Positions 488-56,005 of a stretch of 59,403 nucleotides of DNA are shown in pieces. A program made the position numbers and the translations under genes. The notes below the pieces were generated by a model. The model saw nothing but the letters and a program-made list of their open reading frames with translations. It ran no database searches and was not told the DNA's origin. How positions within the stretch are numbered: the first letter of the stretch is position 1; the number at the start of each line of letters is the position of its first letter. The DNA lies in IMG/VR virus record IMGVR_UViG_3300032297_000320, positions 1 to 59,403 of that record; one strand, given 5' to 3'. The stretch comes from a virus (Duplodnaviria; Caudoviricetes).

Positions 488-529
488 ATGAGGCTAAAAC
501 CCAACTTTGCAACAAAGCAATTAAACTCA

Positions 530-3892: not shown

Positions 3893-3904
3893 TATCTTTG
3901 GTTA

Positions 3905-4423: not shown

Positions 4424-4499
4424 GTACTCACGCTCATTCCGTATCGAGCTTGATATGATTCGTGCGGCTCTGACAGAGTACAACGAGCAACACGGATGA
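4281..4499 (+). CDS. hypothetical protein
   Basis: ATG 4281; ATGA coupling to the next gene; phage-like codon use. Confidence 0.65.
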   Translation: MTLEQLSRIYFIATNRISVASAELYEDLHDEKGSPLLDQKQVSEVTNKYSRSFRIELDMIRAALTEYNEQHG

Positions 4500-5458: not shown

Positions 5459-5862
5459 TTAAGTACGAGAGAGAGCTGTTCAGGTTAATCAAGGAGCGAC
5501 TAGCTCCCGACTTAGAGTTAAGTGAGCATCAGATGTCTAAATATGATTGTTACTCAATTAGTTACAACGCAGACATCGAACTCAAGTGCAGGAACCGCCA
5601 CTATAACGATTTAGTTATAGAGAAGATTAAGTACGATGCTCTTGTCGCCCGGGCTTCTATGTTTGGAACGGTCCCGGTATATATCAACTCAACTCCCATC
5701 GGGGTGTGGTCGTTCCGTTTGACGGAGCTTCCAGAGCCATCGTGGGAGGAGCGTCGTATGCCAAAGACTACCCACTTCTCTAACAACAATATGATTGTCA
5801 AGGTGGTAGGATACTACAATATTTCTTTAGGAAAAAACATAACGGACTTGCTAGGTTTGTAG
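5455..5862 (+). CDS. PD-(D/E)XK-like nuclease
   Basis: SKYDC...IELKCR...IEKIKY. Confidence 0.6.
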   Translation: MIKYERELFRLIKERLAPDLELSEHQMSKYDCYSISYNADIELKCRNRHYNDLVIEKIKYDALVARASMFGTVPVYINSTPIGVWSFRLTELPEPSWEERRMPKTTHFSNNNMIVKVVGYYNISLGKNITDLLGL

Positions 5863-5878
5863 CCTATTCATATCTTCG
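5846..5878 (+). promoter_or_regulatory. Promoter upstream of nrdB (ACTTG-N20-TATCTTCG)
   Basis: Same spacing as four other + strand promoters. Confidence 0.6.
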
Positions 5879-5888
5879 CATTCCGTTT

Positions 5889-5912
5889 GGGTCACAGCTG
5901 TGGCCCTTTTTT
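5889..5912 (+). terminator. Intrinsic terminator-like hairpin
   Basis: gggtcacagctgtggccc followed by T6. Confidence 0.55.
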
Positions 5913-5934
5913 GTCTAATCTAAAACCAATCAAT

Positions 5935-6930
5935 ATGGGACTGTTCGACGAACGAATCCATTATAAGCCATTCGAGTACAACGTGTACTTCACAGATGGG
6001 TGGCTTCCTCAGGCACAAGCCTTCTGGCTTCACACTGAAATCCCAATGCAGGGTGACGTCAAGGACTTCCGAGAGAACCTTACGGACGCTGAACGCAATC
6101 TAGTTGGTAACATCCTACTTGGCTTTGCTCAAACAGAAACTGCTGTTGGTGATTACTGGACTAGTATGGTAACCAAGTGGTTTCCCAAGCACGAGATTAA
6201 GCAGATGGCTATGATGTTCGGATCACAGGAGACCATCCACGCTGCAGCATACAGCTACCTCAACGAGACACTCGGCCTTGAAGACTTCGAGGCATTCCTT
6301 CACGAGCCTTCTACCGCGGCACGCTTTGAGAACCTCGTAAACACTAAGGCAGGATATGATCATAACGTTCTGAAGATTAGCCCAGTAGGACGCAAAGACA
6401 TTGCTCGTTCTATCGCTGTGTTCTCTGCGTTTGCAGAAGGAGTAGCTCTGTACTCATCCTTTGCTGTTCTCTACTCGTTCCAGATGCGTAACCTACTTAA
6501 AGGTATTGGACAGCAAATGAAGTGGAGCGTACGTGACGAGAGCCTCCATAGTAAGATGGGTTGCGTTCTGTTCAACCACGTATGCCAAGAGTATCCTACC
6601 ATCCGTGCCGAGGTACGCAAAGAAGTAGAGGAGGCCGCACGTATTGCTGTTGATCTAGAGGTAAACTTCATCGACAAGATGTTTGAGATGGGGGACCTTG
6701 AGAACCTGAAGGCAGACGACCTTAAGGAGTTCATCAAGATGCGTGCAAACGAGAAGCTTGTTGAGCTTGGCTACGAAGCAATCATCCCATACGATGCTGA
6801 GAAAGCTGCTGAACTTGAGTGGTTCAACCACTTATCTGGAGGAGTAACACACACCGACTTCTTTGCTGTTCGCCCCACGGACTACAGCAAGGCAGGAGAA
6901 GGAGAAGACTTTGAGGACATATGGACGTAA
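5935..6930 (+). CDS. nrdB: Ribonucleotide reductase class Ia beta subunit
   Basis: ETIHAAAY, EGVALYSSF, RDESLH and TDFF diiron/radical motifs. Confidence 0.97.
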   Translation: MGLFDERIHYKPFEYNVYFTDGWLPQAQAFWLHTEIPMQGDVKDFRENLTDAERNLVGNILLGFAQTETAVGDYWTSMVTKWFPKHEIKQMAMMFGSQETIHAAAYSYLNETLGLEDFEAFLHEPSTAARFENLVNTKAGYDHNVLKISPVGRKDIARSIAVFSAFAEGVALYSSFAVLYSFQMRNLLKGIGQQMKWSVRDESLHSKMGCVLFNHVCQEYPTIRAEVRKEVEEAARIAVDLEVNFIDKMFEMGDLENLKADDLKEFIKMRANEKLVELGYEAIIPYDAEKAAELEWFNHLSGGVTHTDFFAVRPTDYSKAGEGEDFEDIWT

Positions 6931-7226
6931 TAGATAAAATCGAAATCATTCTCAATACTGTTTGCTACGGGTACGAAATCAAACCTATAGCAATCAGAGC
7001 AAAGAATAGGCAATCTAACATTCGTGAGGCAAGACAACTAGTTGCCTACCTCGTTAGAGAATACACAGAGTTATCTCTACCTAAAGTTGGATTTGTAATC
7101 AACAGAGACCACACAACAGTAATCCACTCAATAAAGGTGGTACGAAACGAAATCGAGTTCAACAAGGACTATCGACGCAAGTACGAACTCATTAACGAAA
7201 TAATCAAAACTAGAATCTATGGCTAA
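6921..7226 (+). CDS. Stand-alone DnaA C-terminal (domain IV) HTH protein
   Basis: EARQLVAYL.RE.T.LSLPKVG...NRDHTTVIHS. Confidence 0.85.
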   Translation: MDVIDKIEIILNTVCYGYEIKPIAIRAKNRQSNIREARQLVAYLVREYTELSLPKVGFVINRDHTTVIHSIKVVRNEIEFNKDYRRKYELINEIIKTRIYG

Positions 7227-8997
7227 GAACTACGGAGACGACTACGGATGGGTACTCGGAGTAGACTACCCGGAATGGGGCAACACTGATGTGTACTGCA
7301 AGACAATCTCAAAGGGATACCTGCTTCCGGGCGAAACACCGCGTGATGCCTACTGGCGTGCAGCTAACGCTGCGGCTAAGCGCCTCTACAAGCCTGAGCT
7401 TGCGGAGAAGTTCTTTGAGTACATCTGGAACAACTGGCTTGGCCTCGCTACACCAGTGCTAGCAAATATGGGTACCGACCGCGGCCTGCCCATCAGCTGT
7501 TTTGGTATTGACGTTGCTGACAGTGTTCACGACATCGGGGCTAAGAACCTCGAGATGATGATGCTAGCCAAACACGGAGGCGGCGTAGGTATCGGAGTCA
7601 ATATGCTTCGTCCATCGGGGTCACCTATCTCCAACAGCAATGGTACTACCGATGGCGTGGTTCCGTTCTGTAAGATCTACGACTCAACTATCCTTGCTAC
7701 TTCTCAGGGTAACGTACGTCGCGGTGCCGCATCTGTCAACCTCAACATCGAGCACGGAGACTTTTGGGATTGGATTGAAATTCGCGAGCCTAAGGGTGAC
7801 GTGAACCGCCAGTCACTGAACCTACACCAGTGTGTAGTTGTGTCAGATAAGTTTATGCGTAAGCTGGAGGATGGCGATGACGAGGCCCGTAAGCGTTGGT
7901 CTAAAGTTATCCAAAAGCGCAAGGCCACTGGTGAGCCTTACATTATGTACCGCGGCAACGTAAACAAGCAGAACCCTGAGCCGTACAAGCACAACGGCCT
8001 GAAGGTTTATATGACCAACATCTGTTCGGAAATCACACTCCACACAGACGAGTCACACAGTTTTGTCTGCTGTCTTTCTTCACTCAACCTCGCTAAGTAC
8101 GACGAGTGGAAGGACACAGATCTAGTCTACTACTCCACGTTCTTCTTGGACGGGGTGCTAGAGGAGTTCATCCAGAAAGCCAAGAATATGAAGGGCTTCG
8201 AAAATTCGGTTCGCTCCGCTGAAAAGGGACGGGCACTTGGACTGGGCGTACTCGGATGGCACACCTACCTGCAGCAACGTGGAGTACCTTTTGAGGGCCT
8301 ACAAGCCCAGCTCGAGACCCGTAAGATTTTCTCCCACATTAAGATGGAGAGCGATCGTGCGAGTCGTGATATGGCACGCATCTACGGCGAGCCTTTGTGG
8401 TGCCGTGGGTTCGGTGTTCGTAACACCCACCTGCGTGCAATCGCACCAACTGTCTCCAACAGCAAACTAAGCGGTAACGTAAGTGCAGGCATTGAGCCGT
8501 GGGCAGCGAATGTGTTTACCGAGCAGTCAGCTAAGGGTACGTTCATTCGTAAAAACCCCACATTGGAGCGCTTACTGAAGAAGATTGGTGCCAACACTAA
8601 AGAGGTGTGGGATCAGATCCTTGCCGACGGAGGTTCTGTTCAGGAGCTTGCTGCGCTTGAGCCTTGGTTCTACCAACGTGGTAAGCTTGTACACCAAGAC
8701 GAACTTGATGCTATGATTGATAGCGTTCCAGTAAAGGATGTGTTCAAGACCTTCAAGGAGATCAACCAGCTTGACCTTGTAATCCAAGCAGGTCTACGTC
8801 AGCAGTACATTGACCAAGCTGTTAGTCTTAACCTTGCGTTTCCATCGGAGGCAACTCCGAAGTGGATCAACCAAGTCCATATGGAGGCTTGGCGTCAAGG
8901 AGTAAAGACGCTGTACTATATGCGAACTGAGTCAGTGCTACGTGGAGATATCGCTAGTAAGGCGATGAACCCCGACTGCTTGAGCTGCGACGGTTAG
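7219..8997 (+). CDS. nrdA: Ribonucleotide reductase class Ia alpha subunit
   Basis: ISCF, TNICSEI, VCCLSSLN, AIAPT, KTLYYMR, C-terminal CLSC. Confidence 0.97.
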   Translation: MAKNYGDDYGWVLGVDYPEWGNTDVYCKTISKGYLLPGETPRDAYWRAANAAAKRLYKPELAEKFFEYIWNNWLGLATPVLANMGTDRGLPISCFGIDVADSVHDIGAKNLEMMMLAKHGGGVGIGVNMLRPSGSPISNSNGTTDGVVPFCKIYDSTILATSQGNVRRGAASVNLNIEHGDFWDWIEIREPKGDVNRQSLNLHQCVVVSDKFMRKLEDGDDEARKRWSKVIQKRKATGEPYIMYRGNVNKQNPEPYKHNGLKVYMTNICSEITLHTDESHSFVCCLSSLNLAKYDEWKDTDLVYYSTFFLDGVLEEFIQKAKNMKGFENSVRSAEKGRALGLGVLGWHTYLQQRGVPFEGLQAQLETRKIFSHIKMESDRASRDMARIYGEPLWCRGFGVRNTHLRAIAPTVSNSKLSGNVSAGIEPWAANVFTEQSAKGTFIRKNPTLERLLKKIGANTKEVWDQILADGGSVQELAALEPWFYQRGKLVHQDELDAMIDSVPVKDVFKTFKEINQLDLVIQAGLRQQYIDQAVSLNLAFPSEATPKWINQVHMEAWRQGVKTLYYMRTESVLRGDIASKAMNPDCLSCDG

Positions 8998-15600: not shown

Positions 15601-17595
15601 GACTTCTGGCTCGACAACCGTGCGGCTACCCGCTCGAGGAGCTCCAACTGGGACTTCTTCGGTAACTTGTTCAGTTGTAGTAATTGTTTTGTTGTCATAG
15701 TACTCTAGTTCGTCAAATTTATCTTCTAGTGTTTGGATGTACGCCTGCTTTGCGTCTGCAGGAATGTCAGACTTGTCTATGTCCTCAATAAGCTGAAGGA
15801 TGCGCTCCTGCGCTGCCTCAGCGTCTGATTGTTCTACCTCATCTCCTCGCTCTACAGCTTGGAGTGTGGCATCCATACCAATGGACTCAAGTATTAGTTT
15901 TTCACGTGCTTGAAGTACTCGATCTGCTGGAGTCGCTTCTTTGCCTGCTCCTTCGATAGGTTGGGCTTCGATAGCGGCTTCCCCTTCTGCGATAGGACTT
16001 GGTATCCCTGTTTCTTTTTGACTATCATACTCGTAGACTTTAATGTTGGGGTCGTACTTAGATTCAATCTTTGTCTTCTCGGAGTAAATTTGTTTTACTT
16101 TCTCCTGAAGCGCATCTTTTGATTGCTCATTCTTGAGTTCTGGATAAATCAACTGAGCCATAGAAAGCTCTTGATTCAATGAAATAACATTGTTGCGATC
16201 TTCTTCACTGAACTCCTCGTAAAAAGATGCAAGATTATTTTCTACCTGCTTAAGTTCTGCAAGTTTATTGATGATTTGACCCTTAACTACAGCCTTTTCT
16301 GATGCGCTAGTATTGGGGTCTTGGTGAACATCATACAAATCATTTATCTCTTCTGAGATATTACGACGCTTGTTAATGTTATTTGCTGTTCCTATTGCAC
16401 TAGGCCCCTTTGATAAAAGAGTAATTGGAGAACCAATTGCAGAGCCAAGAATGAATGCGTCCGCCATCCCATAGACGTTACTCTTGGAAAACATATCTTC
16501 TCCAAAAACGAGTGCATCCATAGCATTGCTAGAAATCTCAACAGCAAGCTCTTCGAGACCCTCTTGAAAACCTTCGGTTGCTACATCTTTGCCTACTTGC
16601 TTAGCGGCTTGAAGTGTTGGGCGAGTTGATTTAGCAATATCAGACACTAACCCTTTACGGAACCCACCGCGGATCAAGTCATCAACGCTAGTGCGGAACA
16701 TAAGCTCAGATGCAATCTCACCAGTGCCCTTGTATGTGGCAACAGCTAAATTAGTAACTGCATCAATAAAGTCATCCTCAGGATTCTTTTCAGCAGCATC
16801 AAGATACGCTTGACCAGCTGACGACATACCGAGAGGGACCATAGGCGCTACATCCTCAGCAATCTTTTTAACCAACTTTGTACGTGGCGCAAGTATAGAA
16901 CCAGTTCTTAGTCCTGCAGCGGTTGCTCCTTCAGCAGCCATCGTAGCACGACCAATAGCTCCCATAGCATACATCTGAGGTATTTGACGACCAGCCTCAA
17001 ACGCAATAAGTTTAGCTCCAATTAAAGGGTTCTCTTGAAATGTTTCTACGATACCCTTTCCAATTGTTTCCTCTCCAACATATTCCGACTGAAGTCGTTC
17101 TTTTTCTTGGTTTAGTGGCTCAAGAAGTTTTGCTGAGTTTGAGGAAAAGTAGTTTGTGTTGTTACCAAGAAGTAATGTCTCTACAGCTCTGTTCAAAAAC
17201 GTGTTTGCAGAAACAACACCTTCGGCAATAGATTGACCAACGTATGAGCCAATGTCGGCAAACTTTTGTGCTTGTGCAGCACGCTGTTCTTCAATTACTT
17301 GCTGTCGAGTTTTTTGTGGCTCTTTATCCTTAGTTCCTTCAAACTTGGGAACTTCACCGAAAGGAGCAGGGACTTCAGCTAATGTAGCCGAAGCAGAAAG
17401 TTCTTCCGAAAAGAGTGAATCGGATGCCTCGGAAGATTCTTTTTTTTTTACGTCAAGATTTACCTGATCAGCATACACTGGGTACTTTTCAACCATCTTA
17501 CCAACCAATAGCGAGTCGTCAACGTCAGCATATTGTGGATACTTTGACTTTACCTTAGCCGCAAATTCAGCTACTGATAACTTAGGTTCTGGCAT
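9655..17595 (-). CDS. Large polyvalent internal virion/ejection protein (HExxH zincin-like motif, XRE HTH, C-terminal LPD38-like region)
   Basis: N-terminal KYPQY module, FHEVFH, LRKKNNLKPSEAAQLAGI, NFNKSG..ANSLYLFFNASVQG, YIKIPLPYG. Confidence 0.75.
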   Translation of the reverse strand: MPEPKLSVAEFAAKVKSKYPQYADVDDSLLVGKMVEKYPVYADQVNLDVKKKESSEASDSLFSEELSASATLAEVPAPFGEVPKFEGTKDKEPQKTRQQVIEEQRAAQAQKFADIGSYVGQSIAEGVVSANTFLNRAVETLLLGNNTNYFSSNSAKLLEPLNQEKERLQSEYVGEETIGKGIVETFQENPLIGAKLIAFEAGRQIPQMYAMGAIGRATMAAEGATAAGLRTGSILAPRTKLVKKIAEDVAPMVPLGMSSAGQAYLDAAEKNPEDDFIDAVTNLAVATYKGTGEIASELMFRTSVDDLIRGGFRKGLVSDIAKSTRPTLQAAKQVGKDVATEGFQEGLEELAVEISSNAMDALVFGEDMFSKSNVYGMADAFILGSAIGSPITLLSKGPSAIGTANNINKRRNISEEINDLYDVHQDPNTSASEKAVVKGQIINKLAELKQVENNLASFYEEFSEEDRNNVISLNQELSMAQLIYPELKNEQSKDALQEKVKQIYSEKTKIESKYDPNIKVYEYDSQKETGIPSPIAEGEAAIEAQPIEGAGKEATPADRVLQAREKLILESIGMDATLQAVERGDEVEQSDAEAAQERILQLIEDIDKSDIPADAKQAYIQTLEDKFDELEYYDNKTITTTEQVTEEVPVGAPRAGSRTVVEPEVRRGKFRLFERLNNLEVAVGTETDGQTSVIETQEDGSIDVVTYDKATKQEVGRQARVADNILGLEYVESIFDADGNLTGVVMRPKTPKGQDISSVRISVINRPELAMDIAIDARKKQIGDVPEVIWLQEYETITREVTTKEKVPAKERPVAEPVAEPVAEPTTEEAEKQPAAEKETPKGIVSKDQATAAVSMAKKLLARLGLKTKVVVHNSREEFDAAMNEVSASGASDAARDGGRFIPSRNEIHINLEDMLLSDPFHEVFHAAFVSRFSKGNQQTREKVASEFKDGILRVLRTGSAQDKQLADEVEQFVNDGEYTAKESPEEFIAQTAGMIALSGNRISKSTMDKLIQWLNNFIGKISPALKLNTRGEFIDFMNSFSGALFDSSIDDQTYTGLESEATTSIPSVSESSSRQGKDDSYVNRTFNKEKIQFADLSEYVGKPAITYAMDLAVTGTVKSPTGVTYTFDGGVFYPLLGEGGWAFTDEKTAKKILSKLKKFDGRVLLMSQDSRGIRGNFQFWGYMLEEVNKAVKDKRATEAELVEYINSKLKKKPIESALEEKGLPLQIKKLSELKNLMPNDGPKKVGYEVRAEFNEALFSAEANKRFGLPRIETILDYVNEPLLANAQYGDIVAVLEFDPKKMEVKDSRTIEGAKIHPAYPWIITGFKDLKILNEFVDVRNVFGDYRSKMAEEKGDPELKKRIKIRAARAVVTGGASANNLEINNNIVKSIVGIAPYRAKYVNEISEARDEYKKPSFERFVKGFRDIAKKFDVQVYGIEKTIGGWYDSELNSVTQEVSMRPAIAGNKEDILAMSAVAGIMAPVKKEDFQNGVMLVEYKSGAEGSEVTFNANSDASAKQIINALNDYGFGGGFTYVVSEKSFSLAMIPSEETSMDQLRDNLDNLLTFAQENNLIDEKSIKYYEAEIKFPNSDRESEDYYGRILQEARDSKRYEGDGREGALKLLNQALEILDERNNALDSELSESSSRRANKPYDELLDSSSKEKVQLGFQASQINYDIEDQLADSKSWQQRDRTPMERYTDLARIAIQDRLYGVIQLQEDVEYSTSKPVGLDQDFRNAEILMHGKAANDIAESTKKAEDVVANVKKAGVTLEEFDDLLYALHAQERNRYIRVQRTDIAESITDLRKKNNLKPSEAAQLAGIDPETYRELEAGTAKGGISTKELNDILSIYGLTPNQFFTQYTRENAGSGMTDAEAQAILNSYGLDSYNPNINSLKPALRDAVKGTQEIIADTRSRMFDFGLETFDTLLAFEDTYKYYVPLRGFEGEDSASEIIGGGRGLEVRGREKRAMGRKSKADSPFLNAVAQNQSTIIRARKNEVAQKLYKLAKENPNDDIWKVIDPSVNKEYKKKATTKGIKDVAKTISDYVLDDRNFAVRIDGEYKFVQFADPKLAEALRGANVVKADFLVKSLGRFNRLLSSFITTYDPEFVLRNFSRDIQVAVVNAVSEQEIEGGLLKGKNITSKIVKSVFPSIKAIFKMSGKDAQATNEFERYYSEFIEDGAKTEWFYSKSVDELRKDVDKLMSGKGDGALQAAGNFVERINTSVENGVRLAAYIESRKAGLAREKAAELAKGLTVNFNKSGSIGPVANSLYLFFNASVQGTSRLVRSLKPQFKKNDDGTRSLQVTNAQKIAISMFVAGSIMSIINELISDDDEDDKSFYSKIPDFEKERNIIIMAPNGKDYIKIPLPYGLNVFYVAGNAMADAGQGIKSVGEVASNIFEAAIGSFSPINFPSSEDLSSWLIKFVTPTIGQIPLSLALNEDYFGRTIYNENFPTDPTPKPESELGRKGATPQSVWIAKQLNKLTGGSEFRSGIVDINPDKIDFVIETLSGGAGRFGLRTTESVSNVVTGNWDQMESNQVPFARVFYGQPRKFVDLQSYFDRRIEVNQFMDEAKANKLEPKDASKVRSMYVVSKSVDKALRNIRKMEKAAENIKDENTKEDRLLELERMRYAQLAKFQKAYENYKINEL

Positions 17596-49970: not shown

Positions 49971-50146
49971 TATTCCTCGTCCTCTTCGTAGTAACAGGCT
50001 TTGATCTTGTAGTGGGTTGGCATCATCTTGCCTGATTTTACAGCAGCCTTGATTTGAGCAACAGCTTCATCAAGAGACGGAGCCTTGACCATAGCCATCT
50101 GACCCATCTCCATTTCGCCTCCTTCGTTGTACTTCTTAATCTTCAT
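49970..50146 (-). CDS. hypothetical protein (58 aa, YNEGG)
   Basis: Hand-translated MKIKKYNEGGEMEM...; TAATG-coupled. Confidence 0.6.
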   Translation of the reverse strand: MKIKKYNEGGEMEMGQMAMVKAPSLDEAVAQIKAAVKSGKMMPTHYKIKACYYEEDEE

Positions 50147-50544
50147 TACTTCATCATCTTGAAGTCGACACCAGTGATCTTTCCGTCCATATTCTTGTCA
50201 AGCTTAACCTGACTGCCCTTTAGGTACTTCATCATTCCACCTTTTCCGTATTTAGGCATCTTACCGCCCTTTTCGTAGTATCCGTCAACGTTCATCTTGC
50301 CGCCACCCATCATCTTCTTGACGGGGCGCTTGACAACCTTGAAGCCCTTAGCCTTAAGCTCCTTGTCGAACTTAGCAAGCTCCTCAGGACCTTCAGCCTT
50401 CAATGCGTTACGCATCTCGGTAAGGTTCTCTGCCTCACGAGTGCGAGCAGCAGCGTTAAACTTCTGATCAGCTGGAGACATCTTCTTCTTAGGATCGATT
50501 GGCATCTTGCCACCCATCTGGTAAACGGTCATCTTTGGTTTCAT
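50146..50544 (-). CDS. Lys/Met/Gly-rich protein with YxxGG repeats and an EF-hand-like loop
   Basis: YQMGG, YEKGG, YGKGG; LDKNMDGKITGVDF. Confidence 0.65.
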   Translation of the reverse strand: MKPKMTVYQMGGKMPIDPKKKMSPADQKFNAAARTREAENLTEMRNALKAEGPEELAKFDKELKAKGFKVVKRPVKKMMGGGKMNVDGYYEKGGKMPKYGKGGMMKYLKGSQVKLDKNMDGKITGVDFKMMK

Positions 50545-50558
50545 AAGTGCAAAGTTAT

Positions 50559-51023
50559 CTATTTAAACGCTACGTATTTTGTCTTGCCACCCTCACGAAC
50601 AGCCTTCAAGATCTGCTTACGATTGGCACCCTTGCGGTATCCTACGTGTACCCAGTCAGGATTCTTGTCTGTCCCAAACTCCCATATCAATTGATCGAAG
50701 TCAAGGTTAGACTTGATGTAGTTAAACACATCAGCATTCGTTACACCATTGCCGTGACCGTCTTGATCCAAGTCAAGAGCCTTTCCAAGGTTATGGTCCG
50801 AAGTAGAGCTACCACCAATAGCCTTGTTCAAGGCAGCAGAGCGGTATCCGCTAGAGATAAAGATAGGAACACCAAAGTACTCACGTACCTTGTCGAACAC
50901 CTCCTCCGAAATAACCTTAAGGTTCTCCAGATGTTCTGCTGTTGGACTATTATCAATCCCCTTGCGCTTGGCAGTATCACTCCGTGTTACCTCAGCCAAC
51001 GATACGTACTTACTTAACTTCAT
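50559..51023 (-). CDS. Endolysin, peptidase M15 family
   Basis: ISSGYRS..LN.AIGG..TSDH..GKALD, WVHVGY. Confidence 0.88.
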   Translation of the reverse strand: MKLSKYVSLAEVTRSDTAKRKGIDNSPTAEHLENLKVISEEVFDKVREYFGVPIFISSGYRSAALNKAIGGSSTSDHNLGKALDLDQDGHGNGVTNADVFNYIKSNLDFDQLIWEFGTDKNPDWVHVGYRKGANRKQILKAVREGGKTKYVAFK

Positions 51024-51146
51024 ACGGCAAAGATAGTAACAGCAATAATAGCTGTTTTATGGACCCATAAGAAAAATAAACTCCTACTAATTTAGTAGAT
51101 ATTTATATAACTATCTGAAAGACACACCAATAAACTAACATCTACC

Positions 51147-51179
51147 ACTTGACTTTCTCGTTTTTCTTTTGTAACTTCG
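51147..51179 (+). promoter_or_regulatory. Promoter (ACTTG-N20-TAACTTCG) facing the non-coding region
   Basis: Same spacing and TCTCG element as the promoters at 455 and 56687. Confidence 0.6.
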
Positions 51180-51438
51180 CTAAGGCTAGAGCCGATAGAC
51201 AGAACGCAGACTAACTAAGCTCTCTTATCATCGAGAGCCTACTTAGCCTACCAAACAAAGAAGGGGCGGCGCCTCAGCAGAGCCCCCACCCCACCGCCGA
51301 GAGCAAACAAAGCTCAAGCTCCTAAGATCCGCTCAGCTACCCATAATACAGGCGTACTATACCCCAACCATAGCTGTTCAAATCATAACAGCAAATCAGT
51401 TGGCTCTAATAGTTTTTTCTTTTTATTACAGCCAACTT

Positions 51439-51538
51439 GTATCTAGGGACCACAAATAAGTATCTAGGGTTACAAATAAGTACCTAGGGTTAGATATAAG
51501 TATCTAGTGGTGCAAATAAGTACCTAGGGGATTATATA
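51439..51538. repeat. Five tandem ~20-bp imperfect repeats (GTAYCTAGGG..ACAAATAA)
   Basis: Units start at 51439, 51460, 51480, 51500 and 51520. Confidence 0.9.
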
Positions 51539-51970
51539 CATAATCGATCGTTCGCGCGCGCGTACGGAAACCGATTCCCAGACGTATGGGGTTGCGTTTG
51601 ACAGCATTTCGTTCGTAGGTTTCAGCGTTTTGCCCACGTGACTCTCGTGATGAACTGACTGATTTTGCTGAGGGTTTTGACTTGAGTTCCTAGGGAAAAA
51701 GGAGGAACAATCCCCCCCCTACTTCACCCCTTTCTGCCCACTATCTCCCACCCCTACCCACGTGCTATGCGCACTTGTGCACGTGCTCACGTGTGTGCGT
51801 TACGCGTGTGTGTGCGCGCATTATGCGCGTGCGCGAGCCAAAGGAATTCGGTTAGCTTTATCCATCATTTTGAGCAATGGATGTATAGTTTCGTTCAATT
51901 TGCGGTTTGCCTATTGTGGGTTCGTTTCGGCTAACTACATTCGCAGTGTTAAACCATTAAAACAATTGCT

Positions 51971-52285
51971 ATGACTCCTTCATCACTTTACAACACCCCC
52001 TCACTCGGAGACTTCATTAAGAGCACCTACGGCGAGATACCTTCGGTCGAGGTTTTGACTGAGCAGGTAGAGAACAACGTACGCCGCCTTGCTGAACTTG
52101 AGTCACGTGTTCCGAACTTCCTTAAGGAGAAAGAATTCGCCTTCGTTGACTTGCGTCGTGAGGTTATCACCTTGCAAGATATTGAGGACTACGAGTACGA
52201 CACTGCTGATGTGAACTACCACTGCAAACGTGCGAACGAACTGCTCACTAAGGTTGAGCAACGTGCGACTAAGTTAGGCTACTAA
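51971..52285 (+). CDS. Early hypothetical protein
   Basis: ATG after TACATTCG promoter-like motif and an A-rich leader. Confidence 0.7.
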   Translation: MTPSSLYNTPSLGDFIKSTYGEIPSVEVLTEQVENNVRRLAELESRVPNFLKEKEFAFVDLRREVITLQDIEDYEYDTADVNYHCKRANELLTKVEQRATKLGY

Positions 52286-52316
52286 AAATTTGAAAAACCG
52301 AAAAAACTGTTCTGCT

Positions 52317-52511
52317 ATGAAAACTAAAAAATCAAACCTATACTCATTCTTTGTCTTAATCGGAGGCGGAGTAGTTCACAAGGAGGTATACCGCCGTGAG
52401 ACTAAGTGTCCTAGTCGCACTAAGGAGTACAAGGTAGTTCGGTGTATGTTCGAGAACTTCAGTGGTGCTGAGGTGCCCATCGTGGGCTACGGATACGAAA
52501 TCGTTAAATAA
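52317..52511 (+). CDS. Early hypothetical protein
   Basis: ATG 52317. Confidence 0.6.
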   Translation: MKTKKSNLYSFFVLIGGGVVHKEVYRRETKCPSRTKEYKVVRCMFENFSGAEVPIVGYGYEIVK

Positions 52512-52529
52512 GTTAAAACTTTCTATGCT

Positions 52530-52727
52530 ATGAAAGTGCATACGTATTCCTTTGGGGGCCTTAAAATTAGGGTTTGCTACCATCGTGATGCCGAGGGTGC
52601 GCTGAAGTGGGCTGTGAGTTCTCCTGAGTTCGATGTGTGTGAATATACTGACGAACTATGGGCAACGAAGGGTGAGGCAATCGAGGCGGGTGTGTATGCC
52701 GCAAAGAGGTTAACTGAGGAGTCCTAG
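52530..52727 (+). CDS. Early hypothetical protein
   Basis: Stop codon lies inside hammerhead 1. Confidence 0.65.
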   Translation: MKVHTYSFGGLKIRVCYHRDAEGALKWAVSSPEFDVCEYTDELWATKGEAIEAGVYAAKRLTEES

Positions 52728-52757
52728 GTGGACGAAACGTCGCGAGACGTCTTAACC
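52708..52757 (+). ncRNA. Type I hammerhead ribozyme 1
   Basis: ggttaa-CTGAGGA-gtcc(taggt)ggac-GAAA-cgtc(gcga)gacg-TC-ttaacc: full core, three perfect stems, cleavage predicted after C52751. Confidence 0.93.
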
Positions 52758-52774
52758 ATAAAACAATCAAAACA

Positions 52775-53017
52775 ATGACTATTAAGGACTATTATCTGAA
52801 AAACTTTTCAACTGATGAATTAGGTTTGGAACTTAATTGCAAACCAACATTTGCAGGTCTTTTGCACCAACTTCTTATTGGTAAATGTGTTTACGAATAC
52901 ATTGGTGTATACGATTCAATTGTGCGAGAAATGTTATTTGAGGAACTTGCAAGAGAGATAGAAACACCTTATAAGTTTGTTTACGACCTATGGTTAAACA
53001 ATAGTGAAAAAGGTTAA
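52775..53017 (+). CDS. Early hypothetical protein bracketed by two hammerheads
   Basis: 80 aa, AT-rich; stop TAA is part of stem I of hammerhead 2. Confidence 0.75.
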   Translation: MTIKDYYLKNFSTDELGLELNCKPTFAGLLHQLLIGKCVYEYIGVYDSIVREMLFEELAREIETPYKFVYDLWLNNSEKG

Positions 53018-53065
53018 CTGATGAGGACTAAATGTCCGAAACAAGGAGCAATCCTTGTCTTAACC
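53012..53065 (+). ncRNA. Type I hammerhead ribozyme 2
   Basis: ggttaa-CTGATGA-ggac(taaat)gtcc-GAAA-caagga(gcaa)tccttg-TC-ttaacc; cleavage predicted after C53059. Confidence 0.95.
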
Positions 53066-53082
53066 ATAAAACAATCGAAACT

Positions 53083-53286
53083 ATGAACACTTCAATTGAA
53101 AGCATCGTTGCATACGAGAGCGGAGAGCTCACTGATCAGGAGGTCGTGTACTTCTTTGCCGAACTTGTGAAGAGCGGTCTAGCCTGGAATCTTCAGGGTC
53201 ACTACGGACGGACTGCGAGTGCGCTAATTGACCACGGACTAATTGACGAGCAAGGAAACGTTTCTCTTGCTGTTCTAGAACTTTAA
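53083..53286 (+). CDS. Early protein with LQGHYGRTA motif
   Basis: YESGEL...F..L..SGLAW.LQGHYGRTA; ATG 53083. Confidence 0.75.
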   Translation: MNTSIESIVAYESGELTDQEVVYFFAELVKSGLAWNLQGHYGRTASALIDHGLIDEQGNVSLAVLEL

Positions 53287-53309
53287 TAACCGCCAACGAA
53301 ATCTAACTT

Positions 53310-53519
53310 ATGAAAACTTATCAATTCATCGTGACTGTGAGCAACAGCACCATCGTCGAGGTTCAATCTGAAAACTACGAGGAGGCCGTCGGACTTGCGC
53401 TGAAGGAGTTCCACGAGAGTGAGGTCATCCACGATCTATGCGACCCACGCTCTATGGGTGTTGACATTGAGCTCGAAGAGGAGTTTGATGGTGAGGTACC
53501 AGAAATGTATCCACTTTGA
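53310..53519 (+). CDS. Early hypothetical acidic protein
   Basis: VEVQSENYEEAV motif; A-rich leader. Confidence 0.65.
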   Translation: MKTYQFIVTVSNSTIVEVQSENYEEAVGLALKEFHESEVIHDLCDPRSMGVDIELEEEFDGEVPEMYPL

Positions 53520-53584
53520 CCGAAAATGTGTTTTGCCGAACAAACAATTCTTTTAACCTTTGACTAACCAACGAAATAATTAAA
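53517..53584 (+). promoter_or_regulatory. Early promoter/leader cassette, copy 1
   Basis: tgac.gaaaatg.gttt..g...aattcttttaacctttga..aaccaac.aaa.aattaaa, repeated at 54058. Confidence 0.65.
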
Positions 53585-53587
53585 ACT

Positions 53588-53743
53588 ATGAAACAATTAG
53601 AATCAGGAGCGGCATCGCTCAAGGTGGAACTGCACAAGGGGGTGATTAGTGTCTACCACGGAACGGACGGCACTTTGCTGTTCACCCGCCCTGCCTTCGA
53701 GGGAGACTGGGGCAAACTTTTTAATCAACTTAAAAACAACTAA
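53588..53743 (+). CDS. Early hypothetical protein (51 aa)
   Basis: Hand-translated MKQLESGAASLKVELHKG... Confidence 0.6.
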   Translation: MKQLESGAASLKVELHKGVISVYHGTDGTLLFTRPAFEGDWGKLFNQLKNN

Positions 53744-53749
53744 GAAACT

Positions 53750-54064
53750 ATGGAACGCTTTAACAAATATCAATTCACTGCCGACCTAGAGGCAGAACTT
53801 CTAGAGGCTGTAAACAACGACCAAATCAGTGAGCTCGAAGAGGTCTTCGACTGGATGCATCAATCAATCGAGAACGCTGTGATCTATGCGGCGGACTGCT
53901 TCGAAATCATTCGGGAACTTCACTTCACGAACTTCAAGGACAGCGACTTTGAGATTACTGACATCTACCAGGCCGCTTATGCCGCCTTGTACGAGTACGC
54001 CAACGAAAACATTGACCTAAGTGATGTCGAGGAAGCGATTAAAAACAAGATAGAAAATGACTGA
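53750..54064 (+). CDS. Ocr (T7 gp0.3)-like acidic DNA mimic / antirestriction protein
   Basis: Highly acidic; DWMHQSIENAVIYAADCFEII resembles Ocr [21 protein letters not shown]. Confidence 0.55.
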   Translation: MERFNKYQFTADLEAELLEAVNNDQISELEEVFDWMHQSIENAVIYAADCFEIIRELHFTNFKDSDFEITDIYQAAYAALYEYANENIDLSDVEEAIKNKIEND

Positions 54065-54125
54065 AAATGGGTTTGTCTATCTAAGTAATTCTTTTAACCT
54101 TTGAAAAACCAACAAAACAATTAAA
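54058..54125 (+). promoter_or_regulatory. Early promoter/leader cassette, copy 2
   Basis: Imperfect direct repeat of 53517-53584. Confidence 0.65.
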
Positions 54126-54129
54126 CACA

Positions 54130-54513
54130 ATGAAAAACACAATGAGCCTTTTAGAAGCCGTAGAATTCCTGGTAGGACTTCAGGACGGTGAGAACGACCA
54201 ACTTGCTCAGGCAATAGATGTAGTCGTTGGCGGACTTAAGTTTGGCCACGAGGAATTCAATCAAGTAGAACTATCTTCCTTAGCCTGGACCGCAGAAGAC
54301 TTTGATAACCACGTTGAAGGGTTGTACGACCTAGGAAAGATTGACGAGTCAACAGCAAAGAAGCTTATGGCCTATCGTGAGTCTGAAAAGCTAGGTATTG
54401 TTTCGAACGCAATCGAAGATATCGAGGACTCAATTATGGAGAAAATAAATGACAGCATTTTCTTACGTGTTCGTATAGAAGCTAACCAAGTAAAAAATCA
54501 AAGCAATGCCTAA
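54130..54513 (+). CDS. Early hypothetical acidic protein
   Basis: ORF directly after the promoter cassette. Confidence 0.65.
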   Translation: MKNTMSLLEAVEFLVGLQDGENDQLAQAIDVVVGGLKFGHEEFNQVELSSLAWTAEDFDNHVEGLYDLGKIDESTAKKLMAYRESEKLGIVSNAIEDIEDSIMEKINDSIFLRVRIEANQVKNQSNA

Positions 54514-55054
54514 TTGGATGAGAACAGCCCTTGAAGTATCAGGCGATCAGAAACTACAGCAAGAATTCTTTGCCGCAATCGGCAACGGAATCGGGTCAGA
54601 ACAGCCAATCGATTTCGAGAAGCTAATACCACCACCTGCGAATATCTTCAGGGGTAACTTAGGAGATACCGAGAGAGTGTACTGCGAGGAGAACAACATA
54701 CCGAATTGGTACGACTGGAACCGCGAGAACTGGGGGACCAAGTGGAACGCGGCCTACGGAGAGCTTCGGCCCTCGAAGCAAGGGGACAGCACTGTGCTGT
54801 TCTTTGACACCGCGTGGAGCTTGCCTATGCCTGTCCTCGAGAAGATTGAGGAGATGCTGATGAATGAGTTCCTTGGCCTTGAAATCTACGGAGAGTTCAT
54901 TGAGGAGGGCTACGCAGTTGCGGGAGTTATCCTGATGGGCAAGGACGGCGGAGATATCCGGGAGATAGACATCGACTTCGACCAAGAGTCAGACCAACCA
55001 AAGATTAATTTCTTTGATCAGGACGGAACAGAATTTAAATTTAAAAACCTTTAA
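54506..55054 (+). CDS. DUF1281/YubB ferredoxin-like domain protein
   Basis: MPNW start, WYDWNRENWGTKWNA, FDTAWSLP. Confidence 0.8.
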   Translation: MPNWMRTALEVSGDQKLQQEFFAAIGNGIGSEQPIDFEKLIPPPANIFRGNLGDTERVYCEENNIPNWYDWNRENWGTKWNAAYGELRPSKQGDSTVLFFDTAWSLPMPVLEKIEEMLMNEFLGLEIYGEFIEEGYAVAGVILMGKDGGDIREIDIDFDQESDQPKINFFDQDGTEFKFKNL

Positions 55055-55057
55055 GCA

Positions 55058-55252
55058 ATGAAATCTTTCTTCGGACAAATCTTCACTCCACTGCGCCAAC
55101 CAAAGGTGTGCATTGAGTACGCAAACGGTGTGTTCATCCTGGTTGATGAGTCGGACCAAAGCTTGGGCTACGAGTTCAAGAACTTTAACGAGGCGTTTCG
55201 CTTCGCTAAGACAATGGGCTACGAGTTCAGTGATAACGACTATTTCGTCTGA
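55058..55252 (+). CDS. Early hypothetical protein
   Basis: Tightly packed ORF. Confidence 0.6.
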   Translation: MKSFFGQIFTPLRQPKVCIEYANGVFILVDESDQSLGYEFKNFNEAFRFAKTMGYEFSDNDYFV

Positions 55253-55253
55253 T

Positions 55254-55403
55254 ATGCCGTTCATCGTTTCGTATAACCCAGACAGCGAGACCTTTGATGT
55301 ACTTCAGAAGAGTCCGTTCCGACTGGTCCGATCCTTCACATACGAGGACGAAGCCTTCAACTACGCCAAGCAATTAGAATCTATTAAACAGCAAAAGAAA
55401 TGA
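55254..55403 (+). CDS. Early hypothetical protein
   Basis: ATG 55254; ATGA coupling downstream. Confidence 0.55.
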   Translation: MPFIVSYNPDSETFDVLQKSPFRLVRSFTYEDEAFNYAKQLESIKQQKK

Positions 55404-56005
55404 AAGACTACAGCGACAACCCAATCGATATCCGACTTCAGAACTGTACTGAGTGCGGACAAGAGTTCGATCAGGACAACGACTACTACGAGTACAACGC
55501 CAAGGATGAAATCATCTGCAGTGACTGCTACTCTTCTCACTGGGATAGTGCGGTGAGCGTATACGAATACGACCCTGAGTACGAGAACCTTAGCCGCATT
55601 GAGTACTCCTATACTCTAGAAAAGCACCGAGACTACGAGAACTACGACCCGTACGACGGCCCACCTCAGTGCATCAAGAAAGCCGAATGGAAGCGAATAG
55701 ACGGATGGAGAGGATACGTTGATGTAGAGATTGCCGATGGCTTCACCTGCGTTGCCGAAGGATGGTCTACCGATATGTACGATGATGTCAAGTGGAAGTG
55801 GGACTTCAACGAGTTTGTTGACAAAGTACACTCAGGAGAACTTGTACCGCCAGTCGAGACATTCTTCATCTTCGCTCAGACGAGCAACGTATTTTCTACT
55901 GCCGCACAGCTTGTGGTACGTACGCACCAAGAGAACACATTCCTGAACTGGTTGGCTGATCAGGCAGGGCTTACTAAAGAACAACTTCAAAACGCACTAC
56001 GATGA
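55400..56005 (+). CDS. Hypothetical protein with an N-terminal Zn-finger
   Basis: CTEC...CSDC; DGWRGY. Confidence 0.7.
   Translation: MKDYSDNPIDIRLQNCTECGQEFDQDNDYYEYNAKDEIICSDCYSSHWDSAVSVYEYDPEYENLSRIEYSYTLEKHRDYENYDPYDGPPQCIKKAEWKRIDGWRGYVDVEIADGFTCVAEGWSTDMYDDVKWKWDFNEFVDKVHSGELVPPVETFFIFAQTSNVFSTAAQLVVRTHQENTFLNWLADQAGLTKEQLQNALR

Follow-up and report, generated by a model that had tools for sequence, protein, structure and literature searches.

Paired type I hammerhead elements at two gene junctions in the early region of a metagenomic phage

Results

Two hammerheads lie between small early genes

The window analysed here is a stretch of 59,403 nucleotides from a metagenomic virus (IMG/VR record IMGVR_UViG_3300032297_000320, positions 1 to 59,403). 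It contains phage portal, helicase and RNR genes. The phage is podovirus-like and its host probably belongs to the Bacteroidota, with the Flavobacteriia as the probable host group. No tRNA genes were found in the window. Within a block of early genes on the plus strand, ORF C (52530..52727, 65 aa), which is conserved in the related contig L120, is followed by ORF D (52775..53017, 80 aa) and ORF E (53083..53286, 67 aa). ORF D has no family match, a PDB sequence search returned no match for it, and three relatives of it were found in viral contigs. ORF E matches phrog_3908, a family of unknown function (E 2e-23; residues 5-61 align to profile positions 8-64 of 74). In a PHROG search with ten early ORFs, only ORF E and a 182-aa ORF were matched, and blastn of positions 50000-56000 against a phage collection gave no match.

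The junctions on either side of ORF D carry two complete type I hammerheads, HH1 (52708..52757) and HH2 (53012..53065), both on the plus strand. Direct reading of the sequence bears out what the initial annotation had proposed. Their starts are 304 nt apart and their predicted cuts 308 nt apart. HH1 begins with the stem I 5' strand GGTTAA (52708-52713) and the core CTGAGGA (CUGAGGA in the RNA; 52714-52720). These are followed by the stem II hairpin GTCC-TAGGT-GGAC with the loop UAGGU (52721-52733), GAAA (52734-52737), the stem III hairpin CGTC-GCGA-GACG (52738-52749) and T-C (52750-52751). The predicted cut falls at 52751/52752, and the stem I 3' strand TTAACC (52752-52757) completes the element. 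HH2 is built in the same order, from GGTTAA (53012-53017), the core CTGATGA (CUGAUGA; 53018-53024), the stem II hairpin GGAC-TAAAT-GTCC with the loop UAAAU (53025-53037), GAAA (53038-53041), the stem III hairpin CAAGGA-GCAA-TCCTTG (53042-53057), T-C (53058-53059) and TTAACC (53060-53065), with the predicted cut at 53059/53060.

In both copies all three stems are perfect and every base of the catalytic core is canonical. The stem III loops (GCGA in HH1, GCAA in HH2) are of the GNRA type, and all differences between the copies in stems II and III are compensatory, as first described. Both elements carry the core C3 U4 G5 A6 N7 G8 A9 as set out in PMC3088659, together with G12 A13 A14, an A15.1-U16.1 pair and H17 (not G) at the cut. 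The core-adjacent pairs 10.1-11.1, 1.1-2.1 and 15.1-16.1 are intact, with 10.1-11.1 being G-C in both. Stem I is open and loops close stems II and III, which is the type I topology. On the plus strand the two elements flank ORF D, an arrangement described for clustered phage hammerheads in the same source (PMC3088659). HH1 and HH2 are thus genuine hammerhead-class elements, located between cistrons on the coding strand. The cut positions and the expected ends (2',3'-cyclic phosphate and 5'-OH) are predicted from the established chemistry of this class.

HH1 and HH2 belong to a family of phage hammerheads

The bare core pattern is not significant, with 15 matches in the window against 14.3 expected. 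When the core and all three stems are required, two matches are left; one or more such matches occurred in 1 of 300 dinucleotide shuffles, and two occurred in none of the 300. Folded singly, each element has the hammerhead as its minimum-energy structure (z -4.1 for HH2).

In a check against the Rfam models, as suggested in the initial annotation, there is no match at the gathering level anywhere in the window. Below it, HH1 aligns end to end to RF00163 (Hammerhead_1; model positions 1-45 of 45), with 22.6 or 28.8 bits in two scans against a gathering score of 34, and HH2 aligns best to RF03152 (RAGATH-1 hammerhead), with 25.1 bits (HH1, 20.3 bits) against a gathering score of 56.3. No match of HH2 to RF00163 was reported. 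HH1 shares the type I topology and the catalytic core of RF00163. RF03152 is a type I model with a short AU-rich stem I, and its upstream hairpin is matched weakly or not at all by HH1 and HH2. Since sub-threshold RF00163 matches are also present in 13 of 14 control genomes, Rfam alone is insufficient as support for the two elements. As both lie under the gathering scores, they are missed by routine annotation. No further class of ribozyme emerged when the entire window was scanned with Rfam on the basis of E-values.

A pattern scan of viral contigs returned at least 118 loci. Among those listed, a stem-checking script identified at least 69 hammerheads in 49 loci, which together with the two in the window amount to 65 distinct sequences. 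From these we derived a family model, R1. Run over the whole window with filters off, R1 recovers only HH1 (65.9 bits, E 2.5e-13) and HH2 (68.9 bits, E 4.8e-14), with the next-best match at 15 bits. In the viral contigs it gives 93 matches in 66 of the at least 118 loci (for the matches listed, with loci counted from tables). Because the selecting script demands pairing, the 100% pairing in the 65 sequences is built in, and only two things count as evidence, the covariation and the low rate of false hits. Among the matches listed, both sides change in 12 of 15 pairs, and the covariation score is 0.678, against 0.147 after shuffling and at most 0.128 when partners are slid.

The family is uniform in its design. 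Among the matches listed, stem I has 6 bp in 60/65 and stem II has 4 bp in 53/65, while the 10.1-11.1 pair is G-C in all 65. A residues flank stem I, and the stem II loop is about 5 nt long. HH1 and HH2 share these family traits, including the spacing between cut and ATG, which is 23 nt in both. Among the matches listed, 55 of the 65 sequences have the next ATG (counting ORFs of 30 aa or more) at 18-27 nt past the cut, compared with 1095 of 19600 random positions (5.6%) in the same loci. Most upstream stop codons fall between -7 and +17 nt, counted from the start of the ribozyme, again among the matches listed. Within one genome, stem I and the leader are near-identical and stems II and III are different in every copy. 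Five whole records hold 1, 2, 2, 9 and 3 R1 matches, which share one strand in each of the four records with several. In the record with nine, the whole set fits into 4.3 kb, and every match adjoins a stop codon and has an ATG behind it. Many members of the family occur singly.

The genes downstream of the hammerheads are mutually unrelated (16 PHROG and 7 Pfam families, each matched once among 59 ORFs). An association of the ribozyme with ORF E or with ORF D was considered and rejected, as there is no R1 match within 3 kb in 16 of 18 loci with ORF E relatives and none in two of the three loci with ORF D relatives. This indicates that the ribozyme is not tied to a gene family.

Stop codons and leaders around the predicted cuts

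Each ribozyme overlaps the stop codon of the preceding gene, and each predicted cut lies 23 nt before the next ATG (52775 and 53083), both as originally noted. HH1 contains the last six sense codons of ORF C together with its TAG (52725-52727), which is located in loop II. In HH2, the TAA of ORF D (53015-53017) forms the last three nucleotides of the stem I 5' strand. An in-frame ATG for ORF E is also present inside HH2 (53032), but the phrog_3908 match supports a start at ATG 53083. Ribosomes finishing ORF C and ORF D must traverse the 5' part of the ribozymes, which could hinder folding.

After the predicted cut, the RNA downstream of HH1 would begin with an A-rich leader of 23 nt without a Shine-Dalgarno sequence (52752..52774, plus strand). 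This leader is predicted to be unstructured, with a minimum free energy of 0 kcal/mol for the fold of 52752-52800. The leader behind HH2 (53060..53082, plus strand) has the same length and is likewise predicted to be unstructured. Its first 17 nt are identical to those of the HH1 leader, which agrees with the claim that both cuts leave the same leader. This 17-mer has two matches in the window at up to three mismatches (0.18 expected), those at HH1 and HH2. The leader motif AACC-N1-6-RAAAYAAT occurs eight times on the plus strand against 0.2 expected, including at 51952, 52754, 53062, 53566 and 54107. The likeness to leaders near 51950, 53565 and 54105 that had been pointed out is therefore real, and the same sites were linked independently by a repeat search (families D2 and D4).

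Two of these leaders stand behind Bacteroidetes-type promoter-like repeats (family D1), and the ribozyme leaders resemble them. The first copy (53517..53584, plus strand) consists of TTG, 19 nt and TAACCTTTG, followed by a leader like those behind the ribozymes, and lies ahead of ORF G (ATG 53588). The second (54058..54125, plus strand) is 78% identical to the first and lies ahead of ORF I (ATG 54130). With the Bacteroidetes promoter geometry that we assume, the promoter-derived leaders would be 22-23 nt long and start with AACC, whereas the ribozyme-derived leaders would be 23 nt long and start with UUAACC.

A similar leader motif, TAACCGCCAACGAAA, is found at 53287-53301 ahead of ORF F, where neither a ribozyme nor a promoter-like motif was found upstream. 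The leader likeness may therefore just reflect the phage's usual translation-start region, and cleavage is clearly not required for internal gene expression. The proposal that the ribozymes act in place of promoters was thus too strong. A third ribozyme ahead of the leader at 51952 was considered and rejected, as there is no CUGANGA upstream and no R1 match. Most junctions in the early block have no ribozyme. Only two do, for which one would predict an RNA with ORFs A-B-C, another with ORF D and a third running from ORFs E-F onward, so that "gene-sized units", as the initial annotation put it, is an overstatement.

A 308-bp cut-to-cut unit is missing from a relative

In an alignment with L120, which is about 95% identical in the flanks, a 308-bp unit is missing from the relative (52749..53056, plus strand). 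The unit contains a leader, ORF D as its sole gene and the second ribozyme. A 20-nt direct repeat, GTCTTAACCATAAAACAATC, occupies 52749-68 and 53057-76, so that a placement of the gap at 52752-53059 is just as valid. The unit matches the RNA that would be set free by cuts at both ribozymes. HH1 is kept in L120, and its sole change is at the free N7 position. The joint from 52748 to 53057, which skips the 308 bp, is also present in one contig of each of two lake-water runs. These runs are labelled RNA-Seq, but they are rated probably DNA or a guess. They contain 7-8% of the sampled words, and their contigs reach 51 kb. Compared with the window, they supply contigs and no molecule ends, and are used here only for this DNA-type joint. 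A search of sequencing runs brought up no RNA data set that contains the phage.

ORF B is replaced in L120 within the same 2 kb, with no ribozyme at its borders. In the contig L138, a relative of ORF D is followed by a hammerhead with different stems, and the junction ahead of it is plain. Among related but non-identical hammerhead junctions, both flanks are homologous in 0/8. Junctions that lack a ribozyme, taken from the same loci as controls, are mostly one-sided too (49 against 14 two-sided, counts that are inflated by duplicate records), and at a two-sided rate of 22% the probability of 0/8 is about 0.14. The result is thus not clearly above background. Hammerhead junctions as preferred mosaic breakpoints were tested and proved indistinguishable from it.

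Discussion

A proposed model for ribozyme-mediated splitting of the early transcript

We consider it probable, with some reservation, that HH1 and HH2 are active type I self-cleaving ribozymes in the plus-strand early polycistronic RNA, which they would split in the following way. HH1 would fold and cut itself after C52751, and HH2 after C53059. Because of the type I topology, nearly the entire ribozyme would remain at the 3' end of the upstream RNA, which would keep its stop codon and have two hairpins at its end, with a terminal 2',3'-cyclic phosphate. The downstream RNA would retain only the 6-nt AU-rich strand of stem I, which would fall off. It would then carry a 5'-OH and the unstructured, A-rich leader of 23 nt without a Shine-Dalgarno sequence, as Bacteroidota ribosomes use. 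The transcript would thereby give three RNAs, one with ORFs A-B-C, one with ORF D and one from ORFs E-F onward. Each would have its own stability and a standard translation-start context independent of the upstream sequence. The stop codon in or beside the ribozyme, the cut 18-27 nt before the ATG and the unstructured leader, seen across the family, are consistent with ribozymes that create a fresh mRNA 5' end shortly before a translation start. We infer that cleavage takes place in infected cells and that the gain is an insulation or uncoupling of expression.

The nearest functional analogues are the RNase III sites of T7 and the synthetic RiboJ insulator. In both, the RNA is cut between cistrons or in the 5'-UTR, the upstream RNA receives a 3' hairpin, and the downstream RNA receives a defined, context-free leader. 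T7 processing relies on a host protein enzyme and yields 5'-phosphate and 3'-OH ends, and RiboJ was engineered from a satellite-RNA hammerhead. The resemblance of HH1 and HH2 to these systems is one of function, not of family. The PeSL cassettes of T4-type phages are repeated regulatory modules that border small accessory genes and for which modular shuffling has been proposed. They are promoter-plus-terminator DNA modules rather than ribozymes, and a link to shuffling is not above background in our data.

The arrangement of HH1 and HH2 has already been described in kind, and the window adds no new principle. Its novelty had been overstated in the initial annotation, as clustered hammerheads flanking single prophage genes were reported in 2011 (PMC3088659). 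In that work, Perreault et al. describe clustered prophage hammerheads that flank single genes or short, varying gene blocks on one strand. Native transcripts of ∼2 kb were cleaved in vitro at three loci and in E. coli at one, and cutting of long transcripts into gene-sized mRNAs was proposed and partly tested (PMC3088659). HH1 and HH2 resemble these clusters in that several hammerheads on the same strand surround single genes. The tested loci, however, are prophage regions of Agrobacterium, Azorhizobium and Clostridium (PMC3088659), whereas here the elements lie in a metagenomic, podovirus-like phage with a probable Flavobacteriia host. Unlike those clusters, the present family has a uniform type I design, with an open stem I of 6 bp, a stem II of 4 bp and a 5-nt loop. 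The regular start-codon spacing of 18-27 nt is not stated in the main text of that paper, in which the alignments are supplementary (PMC3088659).

Hammerheads close to start codons are also known from other viruses. In the haloviruses HF1/HF2, a start codon follows a hammerhead variant at a distance of 13 nt, and the 5' end mapped for the transcript lies no more than 3 nt from the cut (PMC3088659). As with HH1 and HH2, it lies in the early region just ahead of a start codon, but the virus is archaeal, and the ribozyme is a core variant that needs high Mg2+ and heads the transcript as a single copy (PMC3088659). Small ribozymes, hammerheads among them, are also reported from UTRs and intergenic regions of RNA viruses of fungi and plants (PMC13725137). 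Here too, the space between two genes is occupied by a type I hammerhead, which cuts a few nucleotides ahead of the next ORF; RACE confirmed the 5' end, and a contribution of the ribozymes to translation initiation was proposed (PMC13725137). These viruses differ in their RNA genomes and eukaryotic translation, and for DNA phages the paper only cites the existence of the motif (PMC13725137). Full-text searches within one library of papers brought up none that deals with hammerheads of Bacteroidetes, Flavobacterium or Cellulophaga phages. A 2019 review still called for work to define the biological role of phage hammerheads (PMC6765202).

Alternative explanations

The repeated ribozyme-leader module might instead act at the DNA level, as a recombination site at the gene boundaries of co-infecting phages through which gene cassettes would be acquired, lost and shuffled, with cleavage being secondary or serving only to let a cassette be expressed at whatever place it reaches. 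The absence of exactly 308 bp from L120, bounded by the 20-nt repeat of HH1 and HH2 and with its joint recurring in two runs, would suit this explanation. So would the L138 arrangement, the near-identity of stem I and leader within a genome where stems II and III differ per copy, the 0/8 two-sided junctions and the unrelated downstream genes. However, the control junctions are mostly one-sided as well, ORF B was swapped in L120 without a border ribozyme, and one deletion between 20-nt repeats requires no special function. A purely DNA-level role would also not keep a full catalytic core and compensatory stems. We regard this explanation as unlikely.

Cleavage could also be conditional, so that upstream translation or competing pairings set the fraction of RNA that is cut and tune the ratio or timing of downstream expression. 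Regulated cutting of phage hammerheads was raised as a possibility by Perreault et al. (PMC3088659), and stop codons lie inside HH1 and HH2 and, among the matches listed, in or beside the ribozymes family-wide. The predicted folds change when more flanking sequence is included: within 121 nt, HH1 no longer has the hammerhead as its minimum-energy structure, and in HH2 a 9-bp pairing of 53060-68 with 52989-97 competes, both of which also speak against the self-cleavage model. The HH2 pairing is not seen in the counterpart hammerhead in L138, however. There is no evident ligand-binding or sensor element, and the family members look compact, fast and minimal-plus-tertiary, which makes conditional cleavage rather improbable.

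We give little credence to a third scenario, in which the released 308-nt ORF D RNA is circularised, or its flanks are re-joined, through the reverse reaction or a host RtcB-type ligase. Since the two elements are identical in the 3' strand of stem I and in 17 leader nucleotides, either downstream end could dock on either ribozyme. A joined form that skips 308 nt occurs in two runs labelled RNA-Seq, and such products were considered in PMC3088659. Those runs are rated probably DNA or a guess, as noted above, and the same joined form is present in an IMG/VR viral contig, so that a DNA deletion explains it. Perreault et al. sought such products and report none detected (PMC3088659), and many family members occur as single copies.

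That HH1 and HH2 are chance look-alikes or decayed, inactive relics is close to refuted: they do fall under the Rfam gathering scores, and the G at N7 of HH1 is found in only 2/65 among the matches listed, but shuffles produced a motif in only 1 of 300, the R1 scores reach 66-69 bits, the covariation far exceeds its shuffled value among the matches listed (0.678 against 0.147), and L120 has kept HH1 with only the free N7 changed.

Implications of the self-cleavage model

If HH1 and HH2 are active ribozymes that split the early transcript, a wider reading may be offered tentatively, though we hold it doubtful. Hammerhead and short leader might together form a portable, promoter-independent expression module. 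As the module is repeated, it might also set the borders at which early-gene cassettes come and go. Any gene placed behind it would gain the 5' end and the translation-start context of a primary transcript, as is achieved artificially with engineered ribozyme insulators. RNA processing and gene exchange would in that case share one unit, for which the 308-bp unit missing from L120 may be compared, and arrays with as many as nine copies in 4.3 kb would represent operons that are punctuated by ribozymes and were assembled through such exchange.

The fixed distance to the start codon, the stop codon in or beside the ribozyme, the arrays of up to nine and the cut-to-cut cassette indel are regularities of the family, as are the genome-specific leaders common to promoter-proximal genes. 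They turn a vague idea of a role into specific predictions. A laboratory system for these is provided by a related copy in the cultured Flavobacterium elemo phages, where R1 matches the minus strand of vB_FspP_elemoC_14-1A (NC_062743.1, 16948-17013). In one cultured phage, the annotation has a protein on the opposite strand at the ribozyme site.

Two complete type I hammerheads between small ORFs

The initial annotation proposed a pair of type I hammerhead ribozymes, and direct reading of the sequence bears this out. HH1 (52708-52757, + strand) and HH2 (53012-53065, + strand) are both complete, with all defining features. Their starts lie 304 nt apart and their predicted cuts (52751/52752 and 53059/53060) 308 nt apart. 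Both carry the GUC cleavage triplet and a GNRA loop on stem III (GCGA and GCAA, respectively), and all differences between them in stems II and III are compensatory. The stop codons of the upstream ORFs, C and D, fall within the ribozymes (TAG, 52725-52727; TAA, 53015-53017). From each cut it is 23 nt to the next ATG, and the two 5' leaders agree exactly over their first 17 nt.

With the loose core pattern alone, 15 matches were found against 14.3 expected, which is not significant. When the three stems were required, a single dinucleotide-shuffled window out of 300 contained any motif, and none of the 300 contained two. The hammerhead is the minimum-energy fold of HH1 and of HH2, each folded alone. 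When folded within 121 nt, HH1 is predicted to form another structure, and the HH2 hammerhead competes with a 9-bp pairing to 52989-52997. Here, UAUGGUUAA, within ORF D, can pair with 53060-53068, comprising the 3' strand of HH2 stem I and three leader nucleotides, and in the 121-nt fold it takes the place of the active stem I. This pairing is not conserved in the counterpart at L138, one of the viral loci compared. We consider it highly probable that HH1 and HH2 are real ribozymes.

A check against the Rfam hammerhead models, envisaged in the initial annotation, gave sub-threshold alignments, and neither site was called at the curated thresholds. These alignments were to Hammerhead_1 (RF00163), scoring 22.6 and 28.8 bits (cut-off 34), and to the RAGATH-1 hammerhead (RF03152), scoring 25.1 bits (cut-off 56.3). 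By Rfam's own thresholds, the sites thus fall outside both families. RF00163 matches of similar strength occur in 13 of 14 control genomes, so Rfam alone would not settle the case. By their defining features, HH1 and HH2 are hammerheads of the clustered-phage arrangement.

A covarying family of related hammerheads

Relatives were sought by an exact-pattern scan of IMG/VR contigs for the core together with a TTAA-containing stem I, which gave at least 118 loci. With all three stems demanded by script, 69 hammerheads were found in 49 of the at least 118 loci listed, and the matches listed include 65 distinct sequences, the window's two among them. At the shuffle rate, chance would yield well below one match in the ~1 Mb examined. 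In the alignment of these 65 listed sequences (A1), 12 of 15 base pairs vary on both sides, and the covariation score is 0.678, compared with 0.147 for shuffled and at most 0.128 for slid partners. The 100% pairing in A1 carries no weight, since members were selected for pairing. With filters off, a search of the complete window with R1, the covariance model of these 65 sequences, found the two sites alone (68.9 and 65.9 bits; next-best 15 bits). It gave 93 matches in 66 of the at least 118 loci listed (locus count from the match tables).

Among the matches listed, 60 of 65 members have a stem I of exactly 6 bp; an A stands before it in at least 90%, and AA comes after it in 51 of 65. In 53 of these 65, stem II has 4 bp, its loop being mostly of 5 nt with U first and last. 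All 65 have G-C as the 10.1-11.1 pair, and stem III is unconstrained in length and in sequence. The family geometry is as would be expected if loop II is touched by the unpaired sequence on either side of stem I, an interpretation from structural work on natural hammerheads. One hammerhead at L138 (2727-2787; R1, 58 bits) has an additional U between A9 and stem II (CUGAAGAU...) and may represent either a variant next to the core or a copy without activity.

In bacterial genomes, the strict GGUUAA form is rare: 185,579 species gave 6 loci. Of these, the two on long sequences (one a 460-kb scaffold, the other a complete chromosome) come from the Bacteroidota Niabella and Paraflavitalea, and a third is a Pedobacter MAG contig. 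R1 also matches the cultured Flavobacterium phage vB_FspP_elemoC_14-1A (L153/L156; NC_062743.1, 16948-17013, minus strand; 51.2 bits), in the gap between the minus-strand genes gp67 and gp69. Over this match the record annotates gp68 (16937-17044), a plus-strand 'hypothetical protein' of 35 aa; this gene call is probably an error. The elemoD and elemoF copies score 40.3 bits, with two stem II mismatches.

Position of the ribozymes relative to genes

Among the matches listed, the distance from the cut to the first ATG of an ORF of at least 30 aa is 18-27 nt in 55 of 65 (median 22); random positions in the same loci have this spacing in 1095 of 19600 cases (5.6%). The upstream stop codon usually lies just ahead of or within the ribozyme (65 members among the matches listed), the commonest offsets from the ribozyme start being +3 (the TAA of stem I, n=13), +7 (the TGA of CUGA, n=10) and -2/-3 (n=16). 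The downstream genes share nothing: their 59 ORFs match 16 PHROG and 7 Pfam families, one match each.

Five whole records contain 1, 2, 2, 9 and 3 R1 matches, placed on a single strand in all four multi-match records. At L147 (G004:C1:3000-10500; record coordinates 4444-8722), nine hammerheads occupy one strand over 4.3 kb of a 51-kb viral contig. Each adjoins a stop codon with an ATG next, and their cuts would divide the region into units holding between one and four small ORFs. All nine have the same stem I and leader, and stems II and III are different in each. In the early block of the window, ribozymes occur at two junctions only, and 16 of 18 loci with relatives of ORF E (53083-53286, phrog_3908) have no ribozyme within 3 kb. 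The ribosomes on ORFs C and D must pass the 5' part of each ribozyme before terminating.

Proposed intercistronic processing

A type I cut would leave nearly the whole ribozyme on the upstream RNA, which would retain its stop codon and carry two hairpins and a cyclic phosphate at its 3' end. The downstream RNA would start with the 6-nt AU-rich strand of stem I, followed by a leader predicted to be unstructured; the minimum free energy of the first 49 nt after the cut is 0 and -1.2 kcal/mol for the two leaders. From this post-cut topology, we read HH1 and HH2 as putative intercistronic processing sites, which would divide the first early transcript into three pieces (ORFs A-B-C; ORF D; ORFs E-F onward). 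The 'gene-sized units' initially suggested are an overstatement, ribozymes being present at two junctions only. Cut position and end chemistry would follow from the known chemistry of the hammerhead class. We infer cleavage in the cell, where the gain would be independent stability or a context-free translation start. Taken as a whole, this interpretation is the best available, and we regard it as moderately likely. Four observations speak against a simple version of it: ribozymes at no more than two junctions, their absence near most ORF E relatives, the passage of ribosomes through their 5' parts, and the competing folds in the longer sequence.

The ribozyme leaders also resemble those of genes behind two promoter-like repeats (53517-53584 and 54058-54125; 68 nt each, 78% identical), in agreement with the initial annotation. 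Both repeats contain TTG, 19-20 nt and then TAACCTTTG, which we take to be close to the Bacteroidetes -33/-7 promoter consensus. A weaker promoter look-alike lies at 52289-52307, upstream of ORF B. On the + strand, the leader motif AACC-N1-6-RAAAYAAT is present at 8 sites (0.2 expected), of which 6 lie upstream of early ORFs. ORF F, too, has a related motif ahead of it, although no ribozyme or promoter-like motif was found there, so the resemblance may be that of the phage's standard translation-start region. A Shine-Dalgarno-like 4-mer is present in 14 of 61 family leaders among the matches listed; the family is therefore not limited to hosts without Shine-Dalgarno sequences.

The processing interpretation is not new. 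Perreault et al. 2011 (PMC3088659) describe prophage genes or short gene blocks often flanked by multiple hammerheads, and HH1 and HH2 are a case of this clustered-phage arrangement. As related there, ~2-kb native transcripts of three loci were cleaved in vitro, the Agrobacterium locus showed transcript cleavage in E. coli, and a halovirus hammerhead 13 nt upstream of a start codon had a mapped 5' end at the cut; splicing or circles were considered and none detected. No statement of a cut-to-start-codon spacing rule was found in the main text of that paper. A 2019 review lists the role as undefined (PMC6765202), and a 2026 study on fungal RNA viruses argues for a translation-initiation role of type I hammerheads directly upstream of ORFs (PMC13725137). 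In the literature collection searched by full text, no paper on hammerheads in phages of Bacteroidetes, Flavobacterium or Cellulophaga was found. The follow-up value lies in the family-level regularities and in the related copy in cultured Flavobacterium elemo phages.

Possible cassette exchange at gene junctions

Alternatively, the repeated ribozyme module could mark borders of gene-cassette exchange, a live but unsupported idea. The locus L120, from a 55-kb contig with flanks ~95% identical to the window, has ORF C, an HH1-type ribozyme differing solely at the free N7 position, and then directly ORF E. It is without exactly 308 bp of the window. Bounding the gap is a 20-nt repeat that HH1 and HH2 share at their 3' ends and into the leaders, and the gap thus equals the RNA that two cuts would release. 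The skipping form exists as DNA, in an IMG/VR contig; the same joint is found in contigs from two lake-water runs, which are probably DNA. At L138, a relative of ORF D (52775-53017, 80 aa; 78% identical) has a hammerhead with different stems next downstream, a plain junction upstream and a second hammerhead one gene farther upstream.

We compared breakpoints at hammerhead and other junctions of the same loci in non-identical related pairs. Both flanks were homologous at 0 of 8 hammerhead junctions, and other junctions gave 14 two-sided and 49 one-sided cases. The difference is not convincing, and duplicate records inflate these counts. Moreover, ORF B (52317-52511) is exchanged in the 95%-identical L120 (2571-2750) for an unrelated 59-aa ORF with no ribozyme at either border. 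For these two reasons, cassette exchange remains an unsupported rival to intercistronic processing.

A run contig with a similar ORF B replacement skips 195 letters, with 167 others between. L021 has the order gene b, ribozyme, gene a, ribozyme, and L029/L030 the order ribozyme, gene a, gene b, ribozyme. The two ribozymes are the same and the two small genes homologous; these gene orders look like the outcome of a cassette moving past a ribozyme.

Probable host and putative early gene block

The window of 59,403 bp is the whole or nearly whole virus record (completeness estimate 98%). Its portal protein shares ~30% identity with the portal proteins of the Flavobacterium 'elemo' podophages and of Cellulophaga phages phi38:1 and phi40:1, and all 87 records matching it are Flavobacteriia phages or uncultured viruses. 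Start codons in the region read are without Shine-Dalgarno sequences and have A-rich leaders upstream, as expected of Bacteroidota, which fits a host from this phylum.

The + strand gene block runs from ~51,970 to the window end and continues at 485-8,997. It codes for both subunits of ribonucleotide reductase, a cytosine methylase and a DnaB-like helicase whose N-terminal domain is BT4734-like. Because these genes share the block, 'early' is a reasonable inference for the small ORFs heading it. Directly upstream of the first early ORF lies a GC-rich low-complexity stretch (51700-51840) of C runs followed by repeated GTGCGC/CACGTG-like words; the mechanical ORFs over it (51762-51974 and 51767-51934) are unlikely to be real genes. 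The divergent gene blocks are ~950 bp apart. In this interval, the 20-nt unit GTATCTAGGGTTACAAATAA is repeated 4.5 times (51439-51529) and looks like iterons. Its copy number varies among related-strain contigs, whose joints skip 55, 62 or 86 nt.
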